Assembly (NCBI RefSeq): GCF_030013205.1
Contig: NZ_CP122648.1
Direction: 5' to 3' (one strand)
Source: Escherichia coli
Lineage (GTDB): Bacteria > Pseudomonadota > Gammaproteobacteria > Enterobacterales > Enterobacteriaceae
Length of the DNA stretch: 64,000 bases
Positions 14,615-55,232 of the stretch are shown one piece after another. The first letter of the stretch is position 1. Each line of letters begins with the position of its first letter. Made by a program: the position numbers and the translations under genes. The notes beneath the pieces were generated by a model that saw only the letters and a list, made by a program, of their open reading frames with translations, was not told the DNA's origin and made no database searches.

Positions 14615-17291
14615 CGAACCCTTACGTCCCGACCCCGATCGTCTGCTGGAACAAACTGCCGCGCCGCATCGGGGGAAGCTGAAAGTTTTCTTCGGTGCCT
14701 GTGCGGGCGTCGGAAAGACCTGGGCGATGCTGGCAGAAGCCCAGCGACTGCGGGCGCAAGGGCTGGATATTGTGGTTGGCGTGGTTGAAACCCACGGGCG
14801 GAAAGATACCGCCGCAATACTGGAAGGGCTGGCTGTTCTGCCGCCCAAACGCCAGGCGTACCGTGGGCGGCATATCAGCGAATTTGATCTCGATGCCGCC
14901 CTCGCCCGCCGTCCGGCGCTGATCTTAATGGACGAACTGGCGCACAGTAATGCGCCAGGTTCTCGTCATCCTAAACGCTGGCAGGACATCGAAGAGCTGC
15001 TGGAAGCTGGCATTGATGTTTTCACAACCGTCAACGTTCAGCATCTGGAAAGTCTGAATGATGTGGTCAGCGGCGTCACCGGAATTCAGGTACGGGAAAC
15101 CGTGCCCGATCCTTTTTTCGATGCCGCCGACGACGTGGTGCTGGTGGACTTGCCCCCGGACGATCTGCGTCAACGGCTGAAAGAAGGTAAAGTCTATATT
15201 GCCGGGCAGGCGGAACGCGCCATTGAACATTTTTTTCGTAAAGGTAATCTGATCGCCCTGCGCGAACTGGCACTGCGCCGTACTGCCGATCGCGTTGATG
15301 AGCAAATGCGCGCCTGGCGGGGGCATCCTGGCGAAGAGAAAGTCTGGCACACGCGCGACGCGATCCTTTTATGCATCGGGCATAACACCGGCAGCGAAAA
15401 ACTGGTCCGCGCGGCGGCGCGGCTGGCGTCACGGCTGGGAAGCGTCTGGCACGCGGTGTATGTTGAAACCCCTGCCCTGCACCGCTTACCGGAGAAAAAA
15501 CGTCGGGCAATTCTCAGCGCCTTACGTCTGGCGCAGGAGCTGGGCGCAGAGACGGCAACACTTTCTGATCCAGCGGAAGAGAAAGCGGTAGTGCGTTATG
15601 CCCGTGAACATAATCTCGGCAAGATTATTCTCGGTCGCCCAGCCTCGCGCCGCTGGTGGCGTCGGGAAACGTTTGCTGACCGACTGGCGCGCATCGCCCC
15701 CGATCTCGATCAGGTGCTGGTCGCGCTTGATGAACCACCCGTCCGCACGATTAACAACGCGCCGGATAGCCGCTCTTTTAAAGACAAGTGGCGGGTACAG
15801 ATTCAGGGATGCGTGGTTGCCGCCGCGTTATGCGCCGTTATCACCTTAATTGCCATGCAGTGGCTGATGGCGTTTGATGCCGCCAACCTGGTGATGCTGT
15901 ATCTGCTTGGCGTGGTGGTGGTGGCGCTGTTTTATGGACGCTGGCCTTCGGTGGTTGCTACCGTCATTAATGTGGTGAGTTTCGATCTCTTTTTTATCGC
16001 CCCACGCGGCACGCTCGCCGTCTCTGATGTGCAATATCTGCTGACCTTCGCGGTGATGTTAACCGTCGGGCTGGTGATCGGGAACCTTACTGCGGGCGTG
16101 CGTTATCAGGCGCGGGTAGCCCGTTACCGCGAGCAACGCACACGGCACTTATATGAAATGTCGAAAGCACTGGCGGTGGGCCGCAGTCCGCAGGACATCG
16201 CCGCCACCAGCGAACAATTTATTGCCTCCACGTTTCATGCCCGCAGTCAGGTGCTGTTACCCGATGACAACGGTAAATTGCAGCCGTTAACACATCCGCA
16301 AGGAATGACGCCGTGGGACGATGCCATCGCGCAGTGGAGTTTTGATAAAGGCCTGCCTGCGGGCGCGGGCACCGACACGTTACCCGGTGTACCGTACCAG
16401 ATTTTGCCGCTAAAAAGCGGCGAGAAAACCTACGGGCTGGTGGTGGTGGAACCGGGGAATCTGCGCCAGTTGATGATCCCGGAACAGCAACGCCTGCTGG
16501 AGACGTTTACGCTGTTAGTCGCCAATGCCCTTGAGCGGCTGACACTGACCGCCAGCGAAGAACAGGCGCGGATGGCAAGCGAACGAGAACAGATCCGCAA
16601 CGCCCTGCTGGCGGCGCTTTCGCATGATTTACGCACGCCGCTTACGGTGCTGTTCGGTCAGGCAGAAATCTTAACGCTCGATCTGGCGAGCGAAGGATCG
16701 CCCCACGCCCGCCAGGCCAGCGAGATTCGTCAGCATGTGCTGAACACGACCCGACTGGTGAATAATCTACTGGATATGGCGCGAATTCAGTCCGGCGGCT
16801 TTAATTTGAAGAAAGAGTGGTTAACGCTGGAAGAAGTGGTCGGCAGCGCGCTGCAAATGCTGGAACCGGGTTTATCGTCGCCCATCAATCTTTCTCTGCC
16901 AGAACCGCTGACCTTAATCCACGTTGACGGGCCACTCTTTGAACGGGTGCTGATTAATCTGCTGGAGAACGCGGTGAAATACGCGGGTGCGCAGGCCGAA
17001 ATTGGTATCGATGCCCACGTTGAGGGCGAAAATCTACAACTGGATGTCTGGGATAATGGCCCCGGTCTTCCGCCAGGCCAGGAGCAGACGATATTTGATA
17101 AGTTTGCTCGCGGGAATAAAGAGTCGGCGGTACCGGGTGTAGGGCTTGGGCTGGCAATTTGTCGGGCGATTGTGGATGTACACGGCGGCACCATTACCGC
17201 GTTCAACCGACCGGAAGGTGGTGCCTGTTTTCGTGTTACACTTCCCCAGCAAACTGCCCCTGAACTTGAAGAATTTCATGAGGATATGTGA
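14607..17291 (+). CDS. kdpD: KdpD, sensor histidine kinase (894 aa)
   Basis: Track ORF frame trimmed to [16 protein letters not shown]; Walker-like GACAGVGKT in the N-terminal domain, transmembrane segment cluster, HisKA (LSHDLRTPL) and ATPase domains. Confidence 0.96.
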
Positions 17292-17965
17292 CAAACGTTC
17301 TGATTGTTGAAGATGAACAGGCTATTCGTCGCTTTCTGCGCACGGCGCTGGAGGGCGATGGGATGCGCGTCTTTGAGGCCGAAACGCTGCAACGCGGCTT
17401 GCTGGAAGCGGCTACCCGTAAGCCAGATTTGATTATTCTCGATCTCGGCCTGCCCGATGGTGATGGGATTGAGTTTATCCGCGACCTGCGCCAGTGGAGC
17501 GCAGTGCCGGTGATTGTGCTTTCCGCACGTAGCGAAGAGAGCGACAAAATCGCCGCGCTGGATGCCGGAGCGGATGATTATCTGAGTAAGCCGTTTGGCA
17601 TTGGCGAATTGCAGGCCCGTCTGCGCGTCGCATTACGCCGCCACTCTGCCACCACCACGCCCGATCCGCTGGTGAAATTTTCCAATGTTACCGTCGATTT
17701 AGCGGCTCGAGTGATCCATCGCGGTGAGGAAGAGGTGCATCTCACCCCGATTGAGTTCCGCCTGCTGGCGGTGTTGCTTAATAATGCGGGAAAAGTGCTC
17801 ACCCAGCGCCAGCTCCTTAACCAGGTGTGGGGGCCAAACGCGGTCGAACACAGTCATTATTTGCGTATTTATATGGGGCATCTGCGACAAAAACTGGAGC
17901 AAGATCCCGCCCGCCCCCGCCACTTCATTACTGAAACCGGTATTGGGTATCGGTTTATGCTTTAG
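17288..17965 (+). CDS. kdpE: KdpE, OmpR-family response regulator (225 aa)
   Basis: Track [20 protein letters not shown]...; 4-nt overlap with kdpD (atgtga). Confidence 0.97.
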   Translation: MTNVLIVEDEQAIRRFLRTALEGDGMRVFEAETLQRGLLEAATRKPDLIILDLGLPDGDGIEFIRDLRQWSAVPVIVLSARSEESDKIAALDAGADDYLSKPFGIGELQARLRVALRRHSATTTPDPLVKFSNVTVDLAARVIHRGEEEVHLTPIEFRLLAVLLNNAGKVLTQRQLLNQVWGPNAVEHSHYLRIYMGHLRQKLEQDPARPRHFITETGIGYRFML

Positions 17966-23537: not shown

Positions 23538-23586
23538 AGCAAATTCCTCAAACGTGCGGCAGGCACAAAACCTGCCGCGTCGGGCA

Positions 23587-24993
23587 TCAGAAGATGGTGA
23601 ATGGTGCGATTACCATAAATTTCACGTCACGCTCATCCTGGAAAATGTTGCCGTAACCACCGCCCCAGCTTGGGATGTCGGAGTGGTTGTCGTATTCGGT
23701 GAAGTGCAGTTTGAACATCGTGCCTTTGGCGCGACCGTCCTGAATGGTGTAGACCGCATCCAGGCTGTAGGCAGACTCTTCAATAGTCCGGTTTTTGTCG
23801 TAGTACGCATCCGGATTGCTCTGCCAGGTAGCGGGTTTAGCATCCCATGCGTAAACGTAGGAAGCGCCGATGGCGAAGCCTGGAAGATTCCAGTTTTTCA
23901 GGTCATACATCGCACCGAAGAAGACCGCTTTTTCGCCGTTGGCGTTGAAGTCAGAACGGTTATCCCACCAGATATCCAGGCGACCGTTCGAGGAAGCGTA
24001 GGTTGGAGTCATACGTTGCAGGAAGTATCCCTGCTGACCGTCGGCTTTAACCCAGGTGCCTTCCAGACGCAAATCCACTACATCAGCCGCCCGGTAACCA
24101 AAGGTCAACGCTTGCAGCCAGGCAGTGCCGTCGTAAAGGTCGTTGACGCTGCGATCGTCAACTTTATCGCGCGTACCGTAGAACTGGTAGCTGGTGGTTA
24201 ACGGGCTACCGGCGATATCAAATTTGTAGCTGGCTTTGGCAAAGTATTGATCGATATACCCTTCCGCCTGACCAAATGCTGCTTCCAGTACGAAGTTATT
24301 TTTGAAGTCGTATTTCGCACCGATGGAGTGCAGATAATCAACTTTGGTGGTTTTATCGTTCTGATAAAACTCATCCATTTCCAGATGCCACGGTGCTTTG
24401 TATTCGTTGGTCCACATGTAGGAGAAACTCAACGCACCCGCATCGCCGTAATCAAAATTCGCCCCGGCTTCCGCACCCTGATAAGTACCCGGCATAAAGC
24501 TCCAGTGCGGCGCTAACAGCGTCTGACCGGTTGGCTGAATATAACCTGCCCTCGCCCACACCGGACCGTATTTAAATTTGGCCGCTGCTTTATACAGGCT
24601 TATACCGCTTTTGTCGCCGGACCAGTCTTCGTCATAGGCTTTATTGCTTTTTGAAAACGCGATTTCGTTCGGGTGAGAGCTGTCACCGTTTTCCGCCATT
24701 TCAATCGCCGTAAACGCAGCAATATCAAGGCCGAACATATCAGCAGCATAACCAGACTGAAAATCGAGGTTGGCGTTCCAGGTGGAGTGAGAAAGGTTGG
24801 TTTTGTATTTGTCGCCGTCGGTAACATCTTTACGGTCGCGTTCACGCTGCCAGTAATAGATACCGCCGGTTAAGGTTGAATCGTCGATGAATCCTTCGGC
24901 GCGAGCCTCCGGCATTGCCATAAAGCCCGACATTGCTGTAACACCGGCGATAGCCAGCGCCAGCGTACTACGTTTGCCACTAAACGTACGCAT
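23587..24993 (-). CDS. chiP: ChiP (YbfM) chitooligosaccharide outer-membrane porin (468 aa)
   Basis: Track ORF with signal peptide [32 protein letters not shown] and C-terminal F, OprD-like porin. Confidence 0.93.
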
Positions 24994-25349: not shown

Positions 25350-26052
25350 TAAATATCCTCCGGCATAGCCGGAGGTTTTTCAAATGCGCCTATAAGGCTC
25401 TCTTACCAGCCGCGCCCTAACAGGCGCACACGATCTGACATTTGCATCCAACTTCGTTACTTACGGCCCGTAAACGGGCTGCCCGGATAGGGAATCGATA
25501 ACTGCTCTCCCATTTTATCCTCTTCAAGCTGGTGCTTTATGTAATCCTGTATCTTCGCCGTGTTCTTACCCACCGTATCGACGTAGTACCCTCTGCACCA
25601 GAACTCTCTGTTCCTGTATTTGAATTTCAAATCACCAAACTGCTCGTAAAGCATCAGACTGCTTTTCCCTTTCAGATATCCCATAAAGCCGGATACGCTC
25701 ATTTTGGGCGGGATCTCCACAAGCATATGGATATGATCTGCACAGCATTCAGCTTCAAGAATCCGTACGCTTTTCCACTCACACAGCTTTCTCAAAATAC
25801 TGCCTATTGCTCTACGCTTCTCTCTGTAGAACACTTGTCTTCGGTATTTTGGCGCAAAAACTATGTGATATTTACAGTTCCATCGGGTGTGCGCTAAGCT
25901 CTTTTCGTTCCCCATTGGGACCCCCTTTTGATTTCTTGTTTGACACTTGCAGTTGCCAGACCGCAAGGTGTTTTAACAAATCAAAAGGGGTTTTAATAAC
26001 TGGCTCAAAGCTGAAAGCTTTCCGGAACCCCCAGCCTAGCTGGGGGTTTTCT
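25350..26052 (-). mobile_element. IS200 (IS200/IS605 family, about 0.7 kb) inserted between chiP and glnS; boundaries approximate
   Basis: Contains an IS200-type tnpA plus hairpins near both ends (26026..26048 aacccccagcctagctgggggtt; 25357..25375 cctccggcatagccggagg); no IS of this kind at this position in K-12 as I recall. Confidence 0.7.
25457..25915 (-). CDS. tnpA: IS200 transposase TnpA (Y1/HUH family, 152 aa)
   Basis: Track ORF frame trimmed to MGNEKSLAHTRWNCKYHIVFAPKYRRQVFY...; matches IS200 TnpA as I remember it, including the HIH motif (ADHIHML) and catalytic Tyr region. Confidence 0.9.
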   Translation of the reverse strand: MGNEKSLAHTRWNCKYHIVFAPKYRRQVFYREKRRAIGSILRKLCEWKSVRILEAECCADHIHMLVEIPPKMSVSGFMGYLKGKSSLMLYEQFGDLKFKYRNREFWCRGYYVDTVGKNTAKIQDYIKHQLEEDKMGEQLSIPYPGSPFTGRK

Positions 26053-26140: not shown

Positions 26141-26152
26141 TAGAACTTAAAA

Positions 26153-27817
26153 TTACTCGCCTACTTTCGCCCAGGTATCACGCAGCCCAACGGTGCGGTT
26201 AAATACCGGTTTTTCCGCCGTAGAATGGCGGCTGTCGAGGCAGAAATAACCTTCACGCTCAAACTGGAATGCTTTACCCGCTACCGCGTCTTTCAGAGAC
26301 GGTTCAGCAAAGCCCTGTTTGATCACCAGCGATTCCGGGTTAATCACCGACAGGAAATCATCCGCAGCACCTGGGTTCGGCACGCTGAACAGACGATCAT
26401 ACAGGCGGATTTCAACCGGCAGCGCATGTGCCGCGCTCACCCAGTGAATAACGCCTTTCACTTTACGACCATCTGCCGGATCTTTGCTTAAGGTGTCGGC
26501 GTCATAAGTACAGAAAATGGTGGTGATATTGCCTTCGGCATCTTTCTCCACGCGTTCAGCCTTAATGACGTAAGCATTACGCAGACGCACTTCTTTACCC
26601 AGCACCAGACGTTTGTACTGCTTGTTAGCTTCTTCGCGGAAATCGGCGCGGTCGATCCAAATCTCACCGCTAAACGGCACCTGACGGCTACCCATTTCCG
26701 GTTTGTTCGGATGGTTCGGCATGGTAACAATTTCGCCTTCGCCCTGGTAGTTTTCGATAACCAGTTTCACCGGATCGATAACCGCCATTGCGCGCGGGGC
26801 GTTTTCGTTGAGATCTTCACGGATGCAGGATTCCAGCGACGCCATCTCAATGGTGTTGTCCTGCTTGGTCACGCCGATGCGTTTGCAGAACTCACGAATA
26901 GAAGCCGCAGTGTAACCACGACGACGCAGACCGGAAATGGTCGGCATACGCGGGTCATCCCAGCCTTCAACATGCTTGTCGGTCACCAGCAGGTTCAGCT
27001 TACGCTTGGACATCACGGTGTATTCCAGATTCAGGCGCGAGAATTCGTACTGGCGCGGGTGAACAGGAATGGTGATGTTGTCCAGTACCCAGTCGTACAG
27101 ACGACGGTTGTCCTGGAACTCAAGCGTACACAGAGAGTGCGTAATACCTTCCAGCGCATCGCTGATGCAATGTGTGAAGTCGTACATCGGGTAGATGCAC
27201 CACTTGTTGCCAGTCTGGTGGTGTTCAGCAAATTTAATGCGGTACAGCACCGGATCGCGCATTACGATAAACGGCGACGCCATATCGATTTTCGCACGCA
27301 GGCAGGCTTTACCTTCTTCAAAACCGCCGGCACGCATTTTTTCGAACAGCGCCAGGTTCTCTTCGACGCTACGGTCGCGGTACGGGCTGTTTTTACCCGG
27401 CTGCGTCAGGGTGCCACGGTATTCGCGGATCTGTTCCGGCGTCAGTTCATCAACATACGCCAGGCCTTTATTGATCAGTTCGATCGCATAGGCGTGGAGC
27501 TGATCAAAATAATCGGAGGAGTAACGGACGTTACCAGACCAGTGAAAACCTAACCACTCAACGTCGTTTTTGATCGACTCAACATACTCGATATCTTCTT
27601 TTACCGGGTTAGTGTCGTCGAAACGCAGGTTGCACTGGCCTTTATAGTCCTGGGCGATCCCGAAGTTCAGGCAGATAGATTTCGCATGCCCAATATGCAG
27701 ATAGCCATTCGGCTCCGGCGGGAAACGGGTGTGTACTGTGGTGTGCTTACCACTGGCCAGATCTTCATCGATGATCTGACGGATAAAGTTAGTCGGGCGG
27801 GCTTCTGCCTCACTCAT
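26153..27817 (-). CDS. glnS: Glutaminyl-tRNA synthetase (554 aa)
   Basis: Track ORF; class I aaRS motifs HIGH ([12 protein letters not shown]) and KMSKS-like (VMSKR). Confidence 0.97.
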
Positions 27818-34591: not shown

Positions 34592-36256
34592 ATGTGTTCA
34601 ATTTTTGGCGTATTCGATATCAAAACAGACGCAGTTGAGCTGCGTAAGAAAGCACTCGAACTGTCACGCCTGATGCGTCATCGTGGCCCGGACTGGTCCG
34701 GTATTTATGCCAGCGATAACGCCATTCTCGCCCACGAACGTCTGTCAATTGTTGACGTTAACGCGGGGGCGCAACCTCTCTACAACCAACAAAAAACTCA
34801 TGTGCTGGCGGTAAACGGTGAAATCTACAACCACCAGGCACTGCGCGCCGAATATGGCGATCGTTATCAGTTCCAGACCGGATCTGACTGCGAAGTGATC
34901 CTCGCGCTGTATCAGGAAAAAGGGCCGGAATTTCTCGACGACTTGCAGGGCATGTTTGCCTTTGCCCTGTACGACAGCGAAAAAGATGCATATCTGATTG
35001 GTCGCGACCATCTGGGGATCATCCCACTGTATATGGGCTATGACGAACACGGTCAGCTGTATGTGGCCTCAGAAATGAAAGCCCTGGTGCCAGTTTGCCG
35101 CACGATTAAAGAGTTCCCGGCGGGGAGCTATTTGTGGAGCCAGGACGGCGAAATCCGTTCTTATTATCACCGCGACTGGTTCGACTTTGATGCAGTGAAA
35201 GATAACGTGACCGACAAAAACGAGCTGCGTCAGGCACTGGAAGATTCCGTTAAAAGCCATCTGATGTCTGATGTGCCTTACGGTGTGCTGCTTTCTGGTG
35301 GTCTGGATTCCTCAATTATTTCCGCGATCACCAAGAAATACGCCGCCCGTCGCGTGGAAGATCAGGAACGTTCTGAAGCCTGGTGGCCGCAGTTACACTC
35401 CTTTGCTGTAGGTCTGCCGGGTTCACCGGATCTGAAAGCAGCCCAGGAAGTGGCAAACCATCTGGGCACTGTGCATCACGAAATTCACTTCACTGTACAG
35501 GAAGGTCTGGACGCCATCCGCGACGTGATTTACCACATCGAAACCTATGATGTGACCACTATTCGCGCTTCAACACCGATGTATTTAATGTCGCGTAAGA
35601 TCAAGGCGATGGGCATTAAAATGGTGCTGTCCGGTGAAGGTTCTGATGAAGTGTTTGGCGGTTATCTTTACTTCCACAAAGCACCGAATGCCAAAGAACT
35701 GCATGAAGAGACGGTGCGTAAACTGCTGGCCCTGCATATGTATGACTGCGCGCGTGCCAACAAAGCGATGTCAGCCTGGGGCGTGGAAGCACGCGTTCCG
35801 TTCCTCGACAAAAAATTCCTTGATGTGGCGATGCGTATTAACCCACAGGATAAAATGTGCGGTAACGGCAAAATGGAAAAACACATCCTGCGTGAATGTT
35901 TTGAAGCGTATCTGCCTGCAAGCGTGGCCTGGCGGCAGAAAGAGCAGTTCTCCGATGGCGTCGGTTACAGTTGGATCGATACCCTGAAAGAAGTGGCGGC
36001 GCAGCAGGTTTCTGATCAACAGCTGGAAACTGCCCACTTCCGCTTCCCGTACAACACGCCGACGTCCAAAGAAGCGTATCTGTACCGGGAGATCTTTGAA
36101 GAACTGTTCCCGCTTCCGAGCGCCGCAGAGTGCGTACCGGGCGGTCCTTCCGTCGCGTGTTCTTCCGCTAAAGCGATCGAATGGGATGAAGCGTTCAAAA
36201 AAATGGACGATCCATCTGGTCGTGCGGTTGGTGTTCACCAGTCGGCATATAAATAA
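34592..36256 (+). CDS. asnB: Asparagine synthetase B, glutamine-hydrolysing (554 aa)
   Basis: Track ORF frame trimmed to conserved MCSIFGVFD (N-terminal nucleophile Cys2); SGGLDSS PP-loop. Confidence 0.96.
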   Translation: MCSIFGVFDIKTDAVELRKKALELSRLMRHRGPDWSGIYASDNAILAHERLSIVDVNAGAQPLYNQQKTHVLAVNGEIYNHQALRAEYGDRYQFQTGSDCEVILALYQEKGPEFLDDLQGMFAFALYDSEKDAYLIGRDHLGIIPLYMGYDEHGQLYVASEMKALVPVCRTIKEFPAGSYLWSQDGEIRSYYHRDWFDFDAVKDNVTDKNELRQALEDSVKSHLMSDVPYGVLLSGGLDSSIISAITKKYAARRVEDQERSEAWWPQLHSFAVGLPGSPDLKAAQEVANHLGTVHHEIHFTVQEGLDAIRDVIYHIETYDVTTIRASTPMYLMSRKIKAMGIKMVLSGEGSDEVFGGYLYFHKAPNAKELHEETVRKLLALHMYDCARANKAMSAWGVEARVPFLDKKFLDVAMRINPQDKMCGNGKMEKHILRECFEAYLPASVAWRQKEQFSDGVGYSWIDTLKEVAAQQVSDQQLETAHFRFPYNTPTSKEAYLYREIFEELFPLPSAAECVPGGPSVACSSAKAIEWDEAFKKMDDPSGRAVGVHQSAYK

Positions 36257-36567
36257 GACGTATAATATTGCCCCGGAGAAATCCGGGGCAATTTCAGTTA
36301 CTGGGGCGCTTGTTGATTCTGATATGCAGTAAGGAAATGTTCCGGGTTTGCCACATCGCTGTTTGACAACTCATCACTGTAGGCCAGTATTTCATAGATT
36401 AATTTCCCACCACTATTGTTGAATTCCGAATTTCATCCTGTATGACAAAAGAATGGCTGTAGGGTGGGGAAAAAACACAAAGTAAACAATAATTGACGAA
36501 TATAGCGCCATGCTGTTCGCAACCTAACCAAACAGTCACTTTCGAGCAATTTTCCTTGAAAAAGAGG

Positions 36568-36596
36568 TTGACGCTGCAAGGCTCTATACGCATAAT
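36568..36596 (+). promoter_or_regulatory. Candidate sigma70 promoter of the tRNA operon
   Basis: -35 TTGACG, 17-bp spacer, -10 CATAAT, then GC-rich discriminator gcgccccgc typical of stringently controlled stable-RNA promoters; about 40 bp before the first tRNA. Confidence 0.5.
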
Positions 36597-36636
36597 GCGC
36601 CCCGCAACGCCGATAAGGTATCGCGAAAAAAAAGAT

Positions 36637-36713
36637 GGCTACGTAGCTCAGTTGGTTAGAGCACATCACTCATAATGATGGGGTCACAGGTTCGAATCCC
36701 GTCGTAGCCACCA
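36637..36713 (+). tRNA. metT: tRNA-Met (elongator, anticodon CAU)
   Basis: 77-nt sequence GGCTACGTAGCTCAGTTGGTTAGAGCACATCACTCATAATGATGGGGTCACAGGTTCGAATCCCGTCGTAGCCACCA; cloverleaf with CCA end. Confidence 0.93.
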
Positions 36714-36721
36714 TCTTTTTT

Positions 36722-36806
36722 GCGGGAGTGGCGAAATTGGTAGACGCACCAGATTTAGGTTCTGGCGCCGCAAGGTGTGCGAGTTCAAGTCTCGCCTCCC
36801 GCACCA
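36722..36806 (+). tRNA. leuW: tRNA-Leu (anticodon UAG)
   Basis: 85-nt GCGGGAGTGGCGAAATTGGTAGACGCACCAGATTTAGGTTCTGGCGCCGCAAGGTGTGCGAGTTCAAGTCTCGCCTCCCGCACCA with long variable arm. Confidence 0.93.
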
Positions 36807-36829
36807 TTCACCAGAAAGCGTTGTACGGA

Positions 36830-36904
36830 TGGGGTATCGCCAAGCGGTAAGGCACCGGTTTTTGATACCGGCATTCCCTGGTTCGAATCCAGGTACCCCA
36901 GCCA
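36830..36904 (+). tRNA. glnU: tRNA-Gln (anticodon UUG)
   Basis: 75-nt TGGGGTATCGCCAAGCGGTAAGGCACCGGTTTTTGATACCGGCATTCCCTGGTTCGAATCCAGGTACCCCAGCCA. Confidence 0.93.
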
Positions 36905-36938
36905 TATTCTTCGAGTAAGCGGTTCACCGCCCGGTTAT

Positions 36939-37013
36939 TGGGGTATCGCCAAGCGGTAAGGCACCGGTTTTTGATACCGGCATTCCCTGGTTCGAATCCA
37001 GGTACCCCAGCCA
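36939..37013 (+). tRNA. glnW: tRNA-Gln (anticodon UUG), second copy
   Basis: Identical 75-nt sequence to the preceding tRNA-Gln(UUG). Confidence 0.93.
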
Positions 37014-37028
37014 TCGAAGAAACAATCT

Positions 37029-37105
37029 GGCTACGTAGCTCAGTTGGTTAGAGCACATCACTCATAATGATGGGGTCACAGGTTCGAATCCCGTCGTAGC
37101 CACCA
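37029..37105 (+). tRNA. metU: tRNA-Met (elongator, anticodon CAU), second copy
   Basis: Identical 77-nt sequence to metT. Confidence 0.93.
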
Positions 37106-37153
37106 AATTCTGAATGTGTCGAATATGTTCGGCAAATTCAAAAACCAATTTGT

Positions 37154-37228
37154 TGGGGTATCGCCAAGCGGTAAGGCACCGGATTCTGATTCCGGCATTC
37201 CGAGGTTCGAATCCTCGTACCCCAGCCA
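37154..37228 (+). tRNA. glnV: tRNA-Gln (anticodon CUG)
   Basis: 75-nt TGGGGTATCGCCAAGCGGTAAGGCACCGGATTCTGATTCCGGCATTCCGAGGTTCGAATCCTCGTACCCCAGCCA; only one CUG copy present. Confidence 0.9.
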
Positions 37229-37232
37229 CATT

Positions 37233-37260
37233 AAAAAAGCTCGCTTCGGCGAGCTTTTTG
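37233..37260 (+). terminator. Rho-independent terminator of the tRNA operon
   Basis: aaaaagctcgcttcggcgagcttttt: GC hairpin with TTCG loop followed by T-run. Confidence 0.7.
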
Positions 37261-37279
37261 CTTTTCTGCGTTCATTCAA

Positions 37280-37372
37280 TGTCGAATGCGATGTTGACAC
37301 GTCTTATCCTTCAAAGTCGGATGCGACGCTGACGCGTCTTATCCGACCTACGGTTGGCATGCATCCGGCAAT
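37280..37372. repeat. REP/BIME elements between the tRNA operon and ubiF
   Basis: gtcggatgcgacgctgacgcgtcttatccgacctac plus a degenerate upstream copy. Confidence 0.6.
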
Positions 37373-37381
37373 GTTGTAAGG

Positions 37382-38557
37382 CTACAACCCTAACGCATAT
37401 TTCAGCGCCTGACGTTTCAACACGCCAGCACGCTCCGCCGCCATCAAACCAAGATTACGCACAAAACGCAGTGGTGGCAGATTATTGCTGAATCCGGCAT
37501 AAAACAGATCCATACCGCTCTGCATAATGAAGTTATCCGCCATGCGCCGCATCTGGTAACGCTTGAGTATCGGATAACTGGCCCACGCTTCGCCATAGCT
37601 GCGAGCGTTGACCAGAACGTCAATCAGGGCATCGACATCACGATAACCAAGATTCACCCCCTGCCCCGCCAGCGGATGGATGGTGTGCGCGGCATCGCCC
37701 ACCAGCGCAAGCCCTGGCTGCACATACTGCAACGCATGGCGACGCGTCAGCGGAAACGCACCAGCGGCAAGCGGTGTCACGTAACCCAGACGCGACGGGA
37801 AATGCTTCACGATTTCCGCCTGGAGCTGTGCCATATTCATATTCTGCAACTGGCGAATGCGCGCCGGAGAGTCATACCACACCAGCGATGCCCAGTTATC
37901 AAACAACGGCAGAAACGCACGCGGTCCGTCTGGGGTAAATTGCTGCCAGGTGCTATCGCCGGGATCGTTCTCGCACTGTACGCTAATCAACATACACGAC
38001 TGCGCATACTGCCAGGCATGAACACCAATTCCCGCCATCTGCCGCACCTGCGAATTTGCGCCGTCGGCACCAATCACCAGCTTCGCGCGGATCGTTTCTC
38101 CACCCTTCAGTTCCAGTTCCTGAAGATCATCATGGCGATGCAGCGCAATCAGCGAGCCTGGCACACGTAACGTTACTTTCGGATGCGCTTCCAGCGCCTG
38201 CCACAGCGCCTGTTGCAGGACAGTGTTTTCCACCATGTAGCCAAGCAACGGTAGCTTAAGTTCAGCGGCGTCAAACACCACATGCGCCGTTTCCCACTCC
38301 CACGTTTCCAGTCTGCGGTAAGGATGGCAACGCATAGCCTGTACTGCATCCCAGACCCCTAACCCTTTAAGCAATGATACCGAAGCCGCACTAATCGCCG
38401 AGATCCGCACGTCCGGCTGGCTGTCAGCGACAAACGGTGCAGGTTGGGCATGTTCGATAACCATTACCGAAAATCCGTGCTGAGCCAGTCCCAGCGCCAG
38501 TGCGCCGCCGACCATTCCTCCGCCGACAATGGCAATTTCCGTTGGTTGATTTGTCAT
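37382..38557 (-). CDS. ubiF: UbiF, 2-octaprenyl-3-methyl-6-methoxy-1,4-benzoquinol hydroxylase (391 aa)
   Basis: Track ORF frame trimmed to MTNQPTEIAIVGGGMVGGALALGLAQHGF (FAD-binding GxGxxG). Confidence 0.95.
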   Translation of the reverse strand: MTNQPTEIAIVGGGMVGGALALGLAQHGFSVMVIEHAQPAPFVADSQPDVRISAISAASVSLLKGLGVWDAVQAMRCHPYRRLETWEWETAHVVFDAAELKLPLLGYMVENTVLQQALWQALEAHPKVTLRVPGSLIALHRHDDLQELELKGGETIRAKLVIGADGANSQVRQMAGIGVHAWQYAQSCMLISVQCENDPGDSTWQQFTPDGPRAFLPLFDNWASLVWYDSPARIRQLQNMNMAQLQAEIVKHFPSRLGYVTPLAAGAFPLTRRHALQYVQPGLALVGDAAHTIHPLAGQGVNLGYRDVDALIDVLVNARSYGEAWASYPILKRYQMRRMADNFIMQSGMDLFYAGFSNNLPPLRFVRNLGLMAAERAGVLKRQALKYALGL

Positions 38558-54597: not shown

Positions 54598-54620
54598 TAC
54601 CTGTCGTTACGGAGGGCATG

Positions 54621-55232
54621 ATGCGACTGTGGTTAATTCGTCATGGTGAAACGCAAGCGAATATCGATGGTCTGTACAGCGGTCATGCTCCCACACCCCT
54701 GACTGCGCGCGGTATTGAGCAAGCGCAAAATCTGCATACGCTGCTACATGGTGTTTCCTTTGACCTGGTTTTATGCAGTGAACTGGAACGGGCACAGCAT
54801 ACCGCGCGACGGGTTCTCAGTGATCGCCAGCTTCCCGTGCAAATCATCCCTGAACTCAACGAAATGTTTTTTGGCGACTGGGAGATGCGACATCATCGCG
54901 ACCTCATGCAAGAAGATGCCGAAAACTATAGCGCGTGGTGCAATGACTGGCAGCATGCTATCCCCACGAACGGTGAAGGATTTCAGGCATTTTCACAACG
55001 TGTGGAACGGTTTATCGCAAGGCTTAGTGAATTTCAGCACTATCAGAATATTTTAGTCGTCAGCCATCAGGGTGTACTGAGTCTGTTAATCGCCCGTTTA
55101 ATTGGTATGCCTGCCGAAGCTATGTGGCATTTTCGCGTTGACCAGGGGTGTTGGAGCGCCATTGATATCAACCAAAAATTCGCGACGCTACGCGTCCTCA
55201 ATAGCCGTGCCATCGGGGTCGAGAATGCATGA
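54621..55232 (+). CDS. cobC: CobC/PhpB, alpha-ribazole phosphatase (203 aa)
   Basis: Track ORF frame trimmed to MRLWLIRHGETQAN (histidine phosphatase RHG motif). Confidence 0.93.
   Translation: MRLWLIRHGETQANIDGLYSGHAPTPLTARGIEQAQNLHTLLHGVSFDLVLCSELERAQHTARRVLSDRQLPVQIIPELNEMFFGDWEMRHHRDLMQEDAENYSAWCNDWQHAIPTNGEGFQAFSQRVERFIARLSEFQHYQNILVVSHQGVLSLLIARLIGMPAEAMWHFRVDQGCWSAIDINQKFATLRVLNSRAIGVENA

Follow-up and report, generated by a model that had tools for sequence, protein, structure and literature searches.

We find that a single tRNA-Gln(CUG) gene, and not the two found in K-12, closes the metT operon of the window analysed here, a stretch of 64,000 nucleotides of Escherichia coli DNA. 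We put the probability at about 0.9 that this gene is a glnV/glnX hybrid left by deletion of one 112-bp unit between the tandem glnV and glnX genes. The same form of the operon is already known; it is present in public reference genomes, notably that of EPEC E2348/69.

How many tRNA genes does the cluster contain? Run on the whole 64-kb window, ARAGORN finds exactly six, all on the + strand (table 1). The Rfam tRNA covariance model, whose gathering score is 29 bits, recovers the same six genes with scores of 57.6–71.1 bits and finds nothing beyond them between positions 35500 and 38500. From 36637 to 37228 they read Met–Leu(UAG)–Gln(UUG)–Gln(UUG)–Met–Gln(CUG), after which comes the terminator. 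The original prediction, which had placed this six-gene order, with its single Gln(CUG) gene and its terminator, at 36637–37260, was exact both in its coordinates and in its list of genes. The second Gln(CUG) gene that it held to be incompatible with this picture is absent: ARAGORN found none in the 64-kb window, nor did Rfam in the interval 35500–38500.

Two further repeats lie within the operon. The glnW equivalent is a tandem copy situated 109 bp after glnU, with a 76-bp identical tract common to both, and the metU equivalent is identical to metT, 392 bp upstream of it. The promoter-like site (10 of 12 consensus positions matched) lies some 40 nt upstream of the first tRNA gene. One such site was seen against 1.2 expected in shuffled sequences, so that by itself the match is not significant, while its position fits the start of the operon. 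At the other end the predicted terminator hairpin has an 11-pair stem and a 4-nt loop, occupies 37234–37259 together with its T-run, and is identical to the K-12 terminator that follows glnX.

Table 1. Positions of the metT operon, its predicted control elements and its flanking genes in the 64,000-nucleotide window.
Feature	Position	Strand	Basis
asnB, upstream flanking gene	34592–36256	+	annotation of collinear K_EC180
promoter-like site of the metT operon (TTGACG, 17 nt, CATAAT)	36568–36596	+	consensus scan
tRNA-Met(CAU), elongator, metT equivalent	36637–36713	+	ARAGORN; Rfam, 71.1 bits; exactly the K-12 sequence
tRNA-Leu(UAG), leuW equivalent	36722–36806	+	ARAGORN; Rfam, 57.6 bits
tRNA-Gln(UUG), glnU equivalent	36830–36904	+	ARAGORN; Rfam; exactly the K-12 sequence
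tRNA-Gln(UUG), glnW equivalent	36939–37013	+	ARAGORN
tRNA-Met(CAU), metU equivalent	37029–37105	+	ARAGORN
sole tRNA-Gln(CUG), probable glnV/glnX hybrid	37154–37228	+	ARAGORN; K-12 alignment; flank comparison; exact-sequence match
putative Rho-independent terminator (AAAAAGCTCGC-TTCG-GCGAGCTTTTT hairpin and T-rich tail)	37234–37268	+	predicted hairpin; K-12 alignment
ubiF, convergent downstream flanking gene	37382–38557	-	annotation of K_EC180

Is this the metT operon, or a different one? Over all 64 kb the window is 99.994% identical to E. coli K_EC180 (swine, Korea), from which it differs at four single bases. The cluster lies between asnB and ubiF and is transcribed away from asnB, with the same flanks as in K-12 and 12 other strains. 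From this position we therefore identify it as the metT operon. The order Met–Leu(UAG)–Gln(UUG)n–Met–Gln(CUG)n is common to more than 30 Enterobacterales loci. The canonical seven-gene content, with both glnV and glnX, is not found in the window, which has one Gln(CUG) gene. The window operon is a copy-number variant of the metT operon and no different operon.

Two features of the flanks deserve mention in their own right. Past the operon terminator and before ubiF ends (37283–37352) there are two palindromic units, e.g. CGGATGCGACGCTGACGCGTCTTATCCGACCTAC, which K-12 keeps with three SNPs and which are putatively REP-like. On the other side, asnB and the metT promoter are separated in AGR4587, 2020N21-246, SK1144 and further strains by some 430 bp of inserted DNA, to which the annotation gives a ‘hypothetical protein’ (L012 2999–3436; L018 3262–3699). 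It is absent from K-12 and from the window (about 36257–36636).

What, then, distinguishes the window from K-12? The two agree in locus, gene order and terminator, and their Met, Gln(UUG) and Gln(CUG) tRNA sequences are identical. The K-12 locus, however, has seven genes and ends in two tandem Gln(CUG) genes, as the original prediction had correctly stated. These two genes, glnV and glnX, are identical, 75 nt each, with starts 112 bp apart; together with the 2 nt upstream, the copies make up a 77-bp perfect direct repeat, and the spacer between the genes is 37 nt long (ATTTATTCAAGACGCTTACCTTGTAAGTGCACCCAGT). Apart from the one Gln(CUG) gene, the operons differ at a handful of SNPs in the spacers and by 1 nt in a homopolymer that precedes Gln(CUG). 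When the window is aligned with the K-12 operon, a single gap of one 112-bp unit appears, a net 111 bp after the homopolymer difference. The window Gln(CUG) gene, itself identical to both K-12 copies, has a 5' flank of the glnV type (...CCAATTTGT, with the leader ...CAAAAACCAATTTGT) and a 3' flank of the glnX type (CATTAAAAAAGCTCGC, with the trailer and terminator CATTAAAAAAGCTCGCTTCGGCGAGC...). An integer number of repeat units is missing, the junction falls inside the identical tract, and the outer flanks are kept.

Duplicate tRNA genes are classically unstable through recombination. Most probably a homologous event between the identical tandem glnV and glnX removed one 112-bp repeat unit, whether unequal crossing-over took place in the 77-bp identical tract or replication slipped across it. 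What it left is one hybrid gene with the leader of glnV and the trailer and terminator of glnX, in an operon otherwise intact. The molecular mechanism, be it RecA-dependent or slippage, is one that we infer. For the duplicate tRNA2-Gln genes, PMC4444293 cites Inokuchi 1979. In the same operon of Salmonella, recombination between metT and metU gave the plasmid pUST314 (PMC5400242). The event proposed for the window resembles this case, and the unequal recombination at supE (glnV/glnX), in that a short perfect direct repeat of tRNA genes within one operon is involved and the outer flanks are kept. It differs from both in being a natural chromosomal polymorphism fixed in a lineage, and in that it would remove a redundant copy only and no unique isoacceptors.

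If one copy was lost, how often is it missing elsewhere? We took a census of 5,426 complete E. coli genomes with short junction-specific queries at a cut-off of at least 80% coverage. The glnV–spacer–glnX junction, diagnostic of two or more copies, is present in 5,267 genomes (97.1%), and the junction of metU spacer, Gln(CUG) and terminator, diagnostic of one copy, in 151 (2.8%). Three or more copies, signalled by a spacer–tRNA–spacer match, are indicated in 29 genomes, about 27 of them convincingly; Rosetta2-DE3 is among them. These queries replaced an attempt to count alleles by megablast with the whole 1,301-bp region. That search gave 1,962 records at 80% coverage or more, in which joined pieces mixed six-gene with seven-gene genomes, and it was abandoned.

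Direct inspection found the single Gln(CUG) gene and six-gene content in UTAK-13, E2348/69, FDAARGOS_1370, 315, ECL27829, 214-4, AGR4587 and K_EC180. At the other extreme, the environmental isolate WP8-S18-CRE-02 has three Gln(CUG) copies (L006 826–1124) and the K-12 derivative GM4792 has five (L004 602–1124), in both cases with a period of 112 bp. The array therefore expands as well as contracts: in E. coli it ranges from one to five copies, and both contracted and expanded products are present. A literature search for published strain-level variation in tRNA copy number at glnV/glnX gave nothing relevant.

The Gln(UUG) pair upstream contracts too. At least eight E. coli genomes have a single Gln(UUG) gene, among them Origami2-DE3, TUM2805 and chicken-meat GF strains. 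Here joined pieces let 5,412 genomes pass the glnU/glnW junction query, and only eight single-piece matches at 100% (H246–H253) were readable.

Do the one-copy genomes descend from a single loss? The six-gene architecture and the hybrid junction of the window, glnV on the 5' side and glnX on the 3' side, recur in EPEC O127:H6 E2348/69 and in some 150 further complete genomes of E. coli. These genomes differ from the window in their flanking haplotypes, which are 98.2–99.6% identical over 1,301 bp, and separate loss events are therefore indicated. Taken together, the single-copy genomes are between 98.2% and 100% identical to the window over this region, a spread about that between the window and K-12, and those that were checked carry at least eight different ubiF protein alleles. 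On a neighbour-joining tree built from about 6 kb of flanks (the asnB side and the ubiF–miaB side) of seven one-copy and six two-copy genomes, the two kinds are interspersed. The one-copy ECL27829 lies nearest to the two-copy O104:H4, with five SNPs in the upstream 3 kb. The one-copy 214-4 lies nearest to K-12, with which it shares an identical UbiF protein and from which it differs by 19 SNPs downstream. E2348/69 and AGR4587, both with one copy, stand beside the two-copy Nissle, and the window groups loosely with FDAARGOS_1370 (one copy) and 2020N21-246 (two). Since single-copy genomes are scattered in this way among two-copy genomes, the simplest reading of these sequences is that there were several losses, at least four or five, a number that is approximate because the tree rests on some 6 kb of flanks in a species that recombines.

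The window's own 1,301-bp haplotype is matched exactly in 14 genomes, all 14 from swine (ETEC/O139:H1). They include K_EC180, two O139:H1 strains (W13-16 and P15-25) and a number of ETEC isolates. This distribution fits clonal inheritance inside one porcine pathogen lineage.

Which state is ancestral? An exact-match scan for the Gln(CUG) tRNA, with one genome per species, yielded 68 Enterobacterales loci, and ARAGORN was run on 36 of these. Seven genes with two Gln(CUG) copies were found in E. albertii, Salmonella enterica subsp. arizonae, several Citrobacter, Kluyvera, Enterobacter cloacae, Raoultella, Klebsiella michiganensis and K. indica, Trabulsiella, Pseudocitrobacter, Hafnia and Mixta. 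S. Typhimurium has the seven-gene arrangement too (PMC5400242). Other counts are scattered among the 36 loci: there are three Gln(CUG) genes in Superficieibacter and in Pluralibacter, and the number of Gln(UUG) genes is one in Siccibacter and three in Intestinirhabdus. Escherichia whittamii (L051 83–565) has a five-gene operon with one UUG and one CUG gene, and the operon of Pectobacterium zantedeschiae consists, like that of the window, of six genes with the same content. Both Gln blocks fluctuate in copy number across the Enterobacterales. Since the species sampled most often have two Gln(CUG) genes, we take two as ancestral and the one-copy state of the window as a derived loss.

The opposite polarity, in which a single copy is ancestral and K-12 and most E. 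coli carry a later duplication, could appeal to the single Gln(CUG) gene at this locus in Escherichia whittamii, Pectobacterium zantedeschiae and Escherichia sp. MOD1-EC7003, although the last of these loci breaks off immediately before its second tRNA gene. We regard it as extremely improbable. It must contend with two copies in E. albertii, Salmonella, Citrobacter, Kluyvera, Enterobacter, Klebsiella, Raoultella, Hafnia and Mixta (PMC5400242) and in 97% of E. coli. Moreover, the single-copy E. coli form no basal group but are scattered among their two-copy kin, and the flanks in the window are exactly the outer flanks of a two-copy array. A very unlikely alternative is that the strain has two Gln(CUG) genes and that the assembler collapsed the 112-bp tandem repeat. 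The original prediction was right to raise this point, for collapse does occur in the metT operon: E. coli 536 is three-gene in its old reference, NC_008253.1 (L089), and has all seven genes in a newer assembly, NZ_CP158445.1 (L090), and eight ‘complete’ genomes show a junction in which metT and metU are fused, a form that would remove predicted-essential genes (PMC11480407). For the window allele we consider collapse unlikely because every assembly found with the window haplotype has one copy: the public genomes with an exact match to the 1,301-bp haplotype number 14, each with a single gene, and no two-copy genome matches the window metU–Gln spacer exactly, the best being 99.2% identical over that part of the query. 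E2348/69, too, is single-copy in four separate records, and the repeat unit is only 112 bp, with two copies resolved in 97% of assemblies.

The fused form merits separate comment. It reads Met–Gln(CUG)x2, without leuW, glnU and glnW, and occurs in eight genomes including the laboratory strain MC1061, IAL7250 (L003) and NC_008253.1. Since leuW is the sole gene for Leu(UAG), glnU and glnW are the sole genes for Gln(UUG), and all three are predicted to be essential (PMC11480407), the fused cases are most likely artefacts, probably assembly collapse across the 392-bp repeat; if real, the three-gene form would remove predicted-essential isoacceptors. Assemblies do sometimes collapse repeats here, and copy-number calls in the metT operon deserve to be checked against reads.

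The deletion of one 112-bp unit between glnV and glnX thus remains our reading, and the original prediction, which had explained the copy-number difference by recombination between near-identical tandem tRNA genes, is supported by the loss of an exact unit, the hybrid flanks, the 77-bp tract and the three- and five-copy arrays. Recurrence in unrelated backgrounds and the predominance of two copies in other Enterobacterales (PMC5400242) point the same way, and the alignment with the K-12 metT operon that had been proposed gave one missing 112-bp unit between a glnV 5' flank and a glnX 3' flank.

Does the deletion disturb expression of the operon? In K-12 the metT operon is transcribed as one polycistronic RNA; removal of its terminator by RNase E stimulates RNase P, and RNase E also aids the separation of the last three tRNAs (PMC2241853). 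The window operon would be expressed in the same manner, with one polycistronic RNA that loses its terminator to RNase E and is cut into separate tRNAs by RNase P. Processing should be unaffected, because the leader of glnV (the RNase P context) and the trailer and terminator of glnX (the RNase E context) are kept. The gene dose of tRNA-Gln(CUG) would be halved relative to the other tRNAs of the operon, as expected where all genes share one transcript.

All Gln tRNA genes of E. coli sit in the metT operon (PMC11480407). In W13-16, whose genome carries the 100%-identical haplotype, megablast with the Gln query finds three matching places, against four in typical two-copy genomes, and at the sensitivity of megablast these three places leave no extra Gln(CUG) gene elsewhere in that record. 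The lineage therefore appears to have a UUG:CUG gene ratio of 2:1 rather than 2:2, with no other Gln(CUG) gene. In the 31 window ORFs of at least 250 aa, CAG makes up 76% of Gln codons; the halved gene therefore serves the major codon. A lower supply of tRNA-Gln(CUG) in one-copy strains is plausible; in Pseudomonas fluorescens, tRNA levels do follow the number of gene copies (PMC10954465).

Could the low dose have been selected? The loss may be real and yet adaptive, the array serving as a dosage knob whose low setting became fixed as advantageous in porcine ETEC/O139:H1. We consider this unlikely. The array does span one to five copies in E. coli, and the clade in which the single-copy allele is fixed is host-restricted, all 14 exact matches being from swine; in other bacteria, tRNA gene copy number is reported to alter both growth and the tRNA pools, and for E. 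coli a benefit of additional tRNA copies is reported in fast growth only (PMC10954465). But a clonal lineage that inherited a neutral deletion would give the same pattern, and other single-copy genomes come from humans, sheep, dog, water and veal. Nor is a lower dosage obviously beneficial where CAG is the major Gln codon, and the single copy stays rare. At a frequency of 2.8% over many hosts there is no sign of strong selection in either direction. A wider proposal, in which the array is a fast, reversible switch of CAG-tRNA dosage, the one-copy state was selected and not reached by drift in the porcine lineage, and a supE-type suppressor is barred except at the price of the sole dedicated CAG reader, seems to us quite improbable as a whole.

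Several other features of the window were noted in passing. According to the collinear annotation of K_EC180, glnS, which encodes glutaminyl-tRNA synthetase, lies at 26152–27816 (-) and chiP at 23586–24992 (-). An IS200C transposase gene (25456–25914, -) separates the 3' end of glnS from the 5' region of chiP; judged from its position, IS200C could affect the promoter or 5' UTR of chiP. The first 9,436 positions of the window are an Rhs element region in the K_EC180 annotation, with a 4.25-kb gene for an RHS core protein (5186–9436, -), then Rhs tip fragments, small orphan ORFs, ISAs1 with an internal stop, and remnants of IS1 and IS630. Internal repeats of 290–360 bp, at 94–97% identity, occur there at 1482–1770, 2835–3198 and 5695–6056. 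Both kdpE (17288–17965, 225 aa) and cobC (54618–55232, 204 aa) are intact ORFs in the window. The frameshifts annotated for these two genes in K_EC180 were set aside as candidates: they are single-C indel differences between the records, at window positions 17914 (in a C-rich stretch) and 54962, and may be sequencing errors in the K_EC180 record.

What does the missing copy mean for E. coli? In itself it is a routine tandem-copy polymorphism of little significance. It does imply that the 2 + 2 Gln genes of K-12 are not to be assumed for every strain in models of codon adaptation or tRNA supply. It may bear as well on suppressor genetics, and the effects that the original prediction suggested, on CAG decoding capacity and on amber suppression, are reasonable ones to expect. 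The supE44 amber suppressor of K-12 is a mutation of glnX, and glnV is left to read CAG (PMC4444293); supE44 in K-12 thus depends on a spare Gln(CUG) copy. By analogy it is reasonable to expect that, in a one-copy strain, a suppressor mutation from CUG to CUA would remove the only Gln tRNA with C34.
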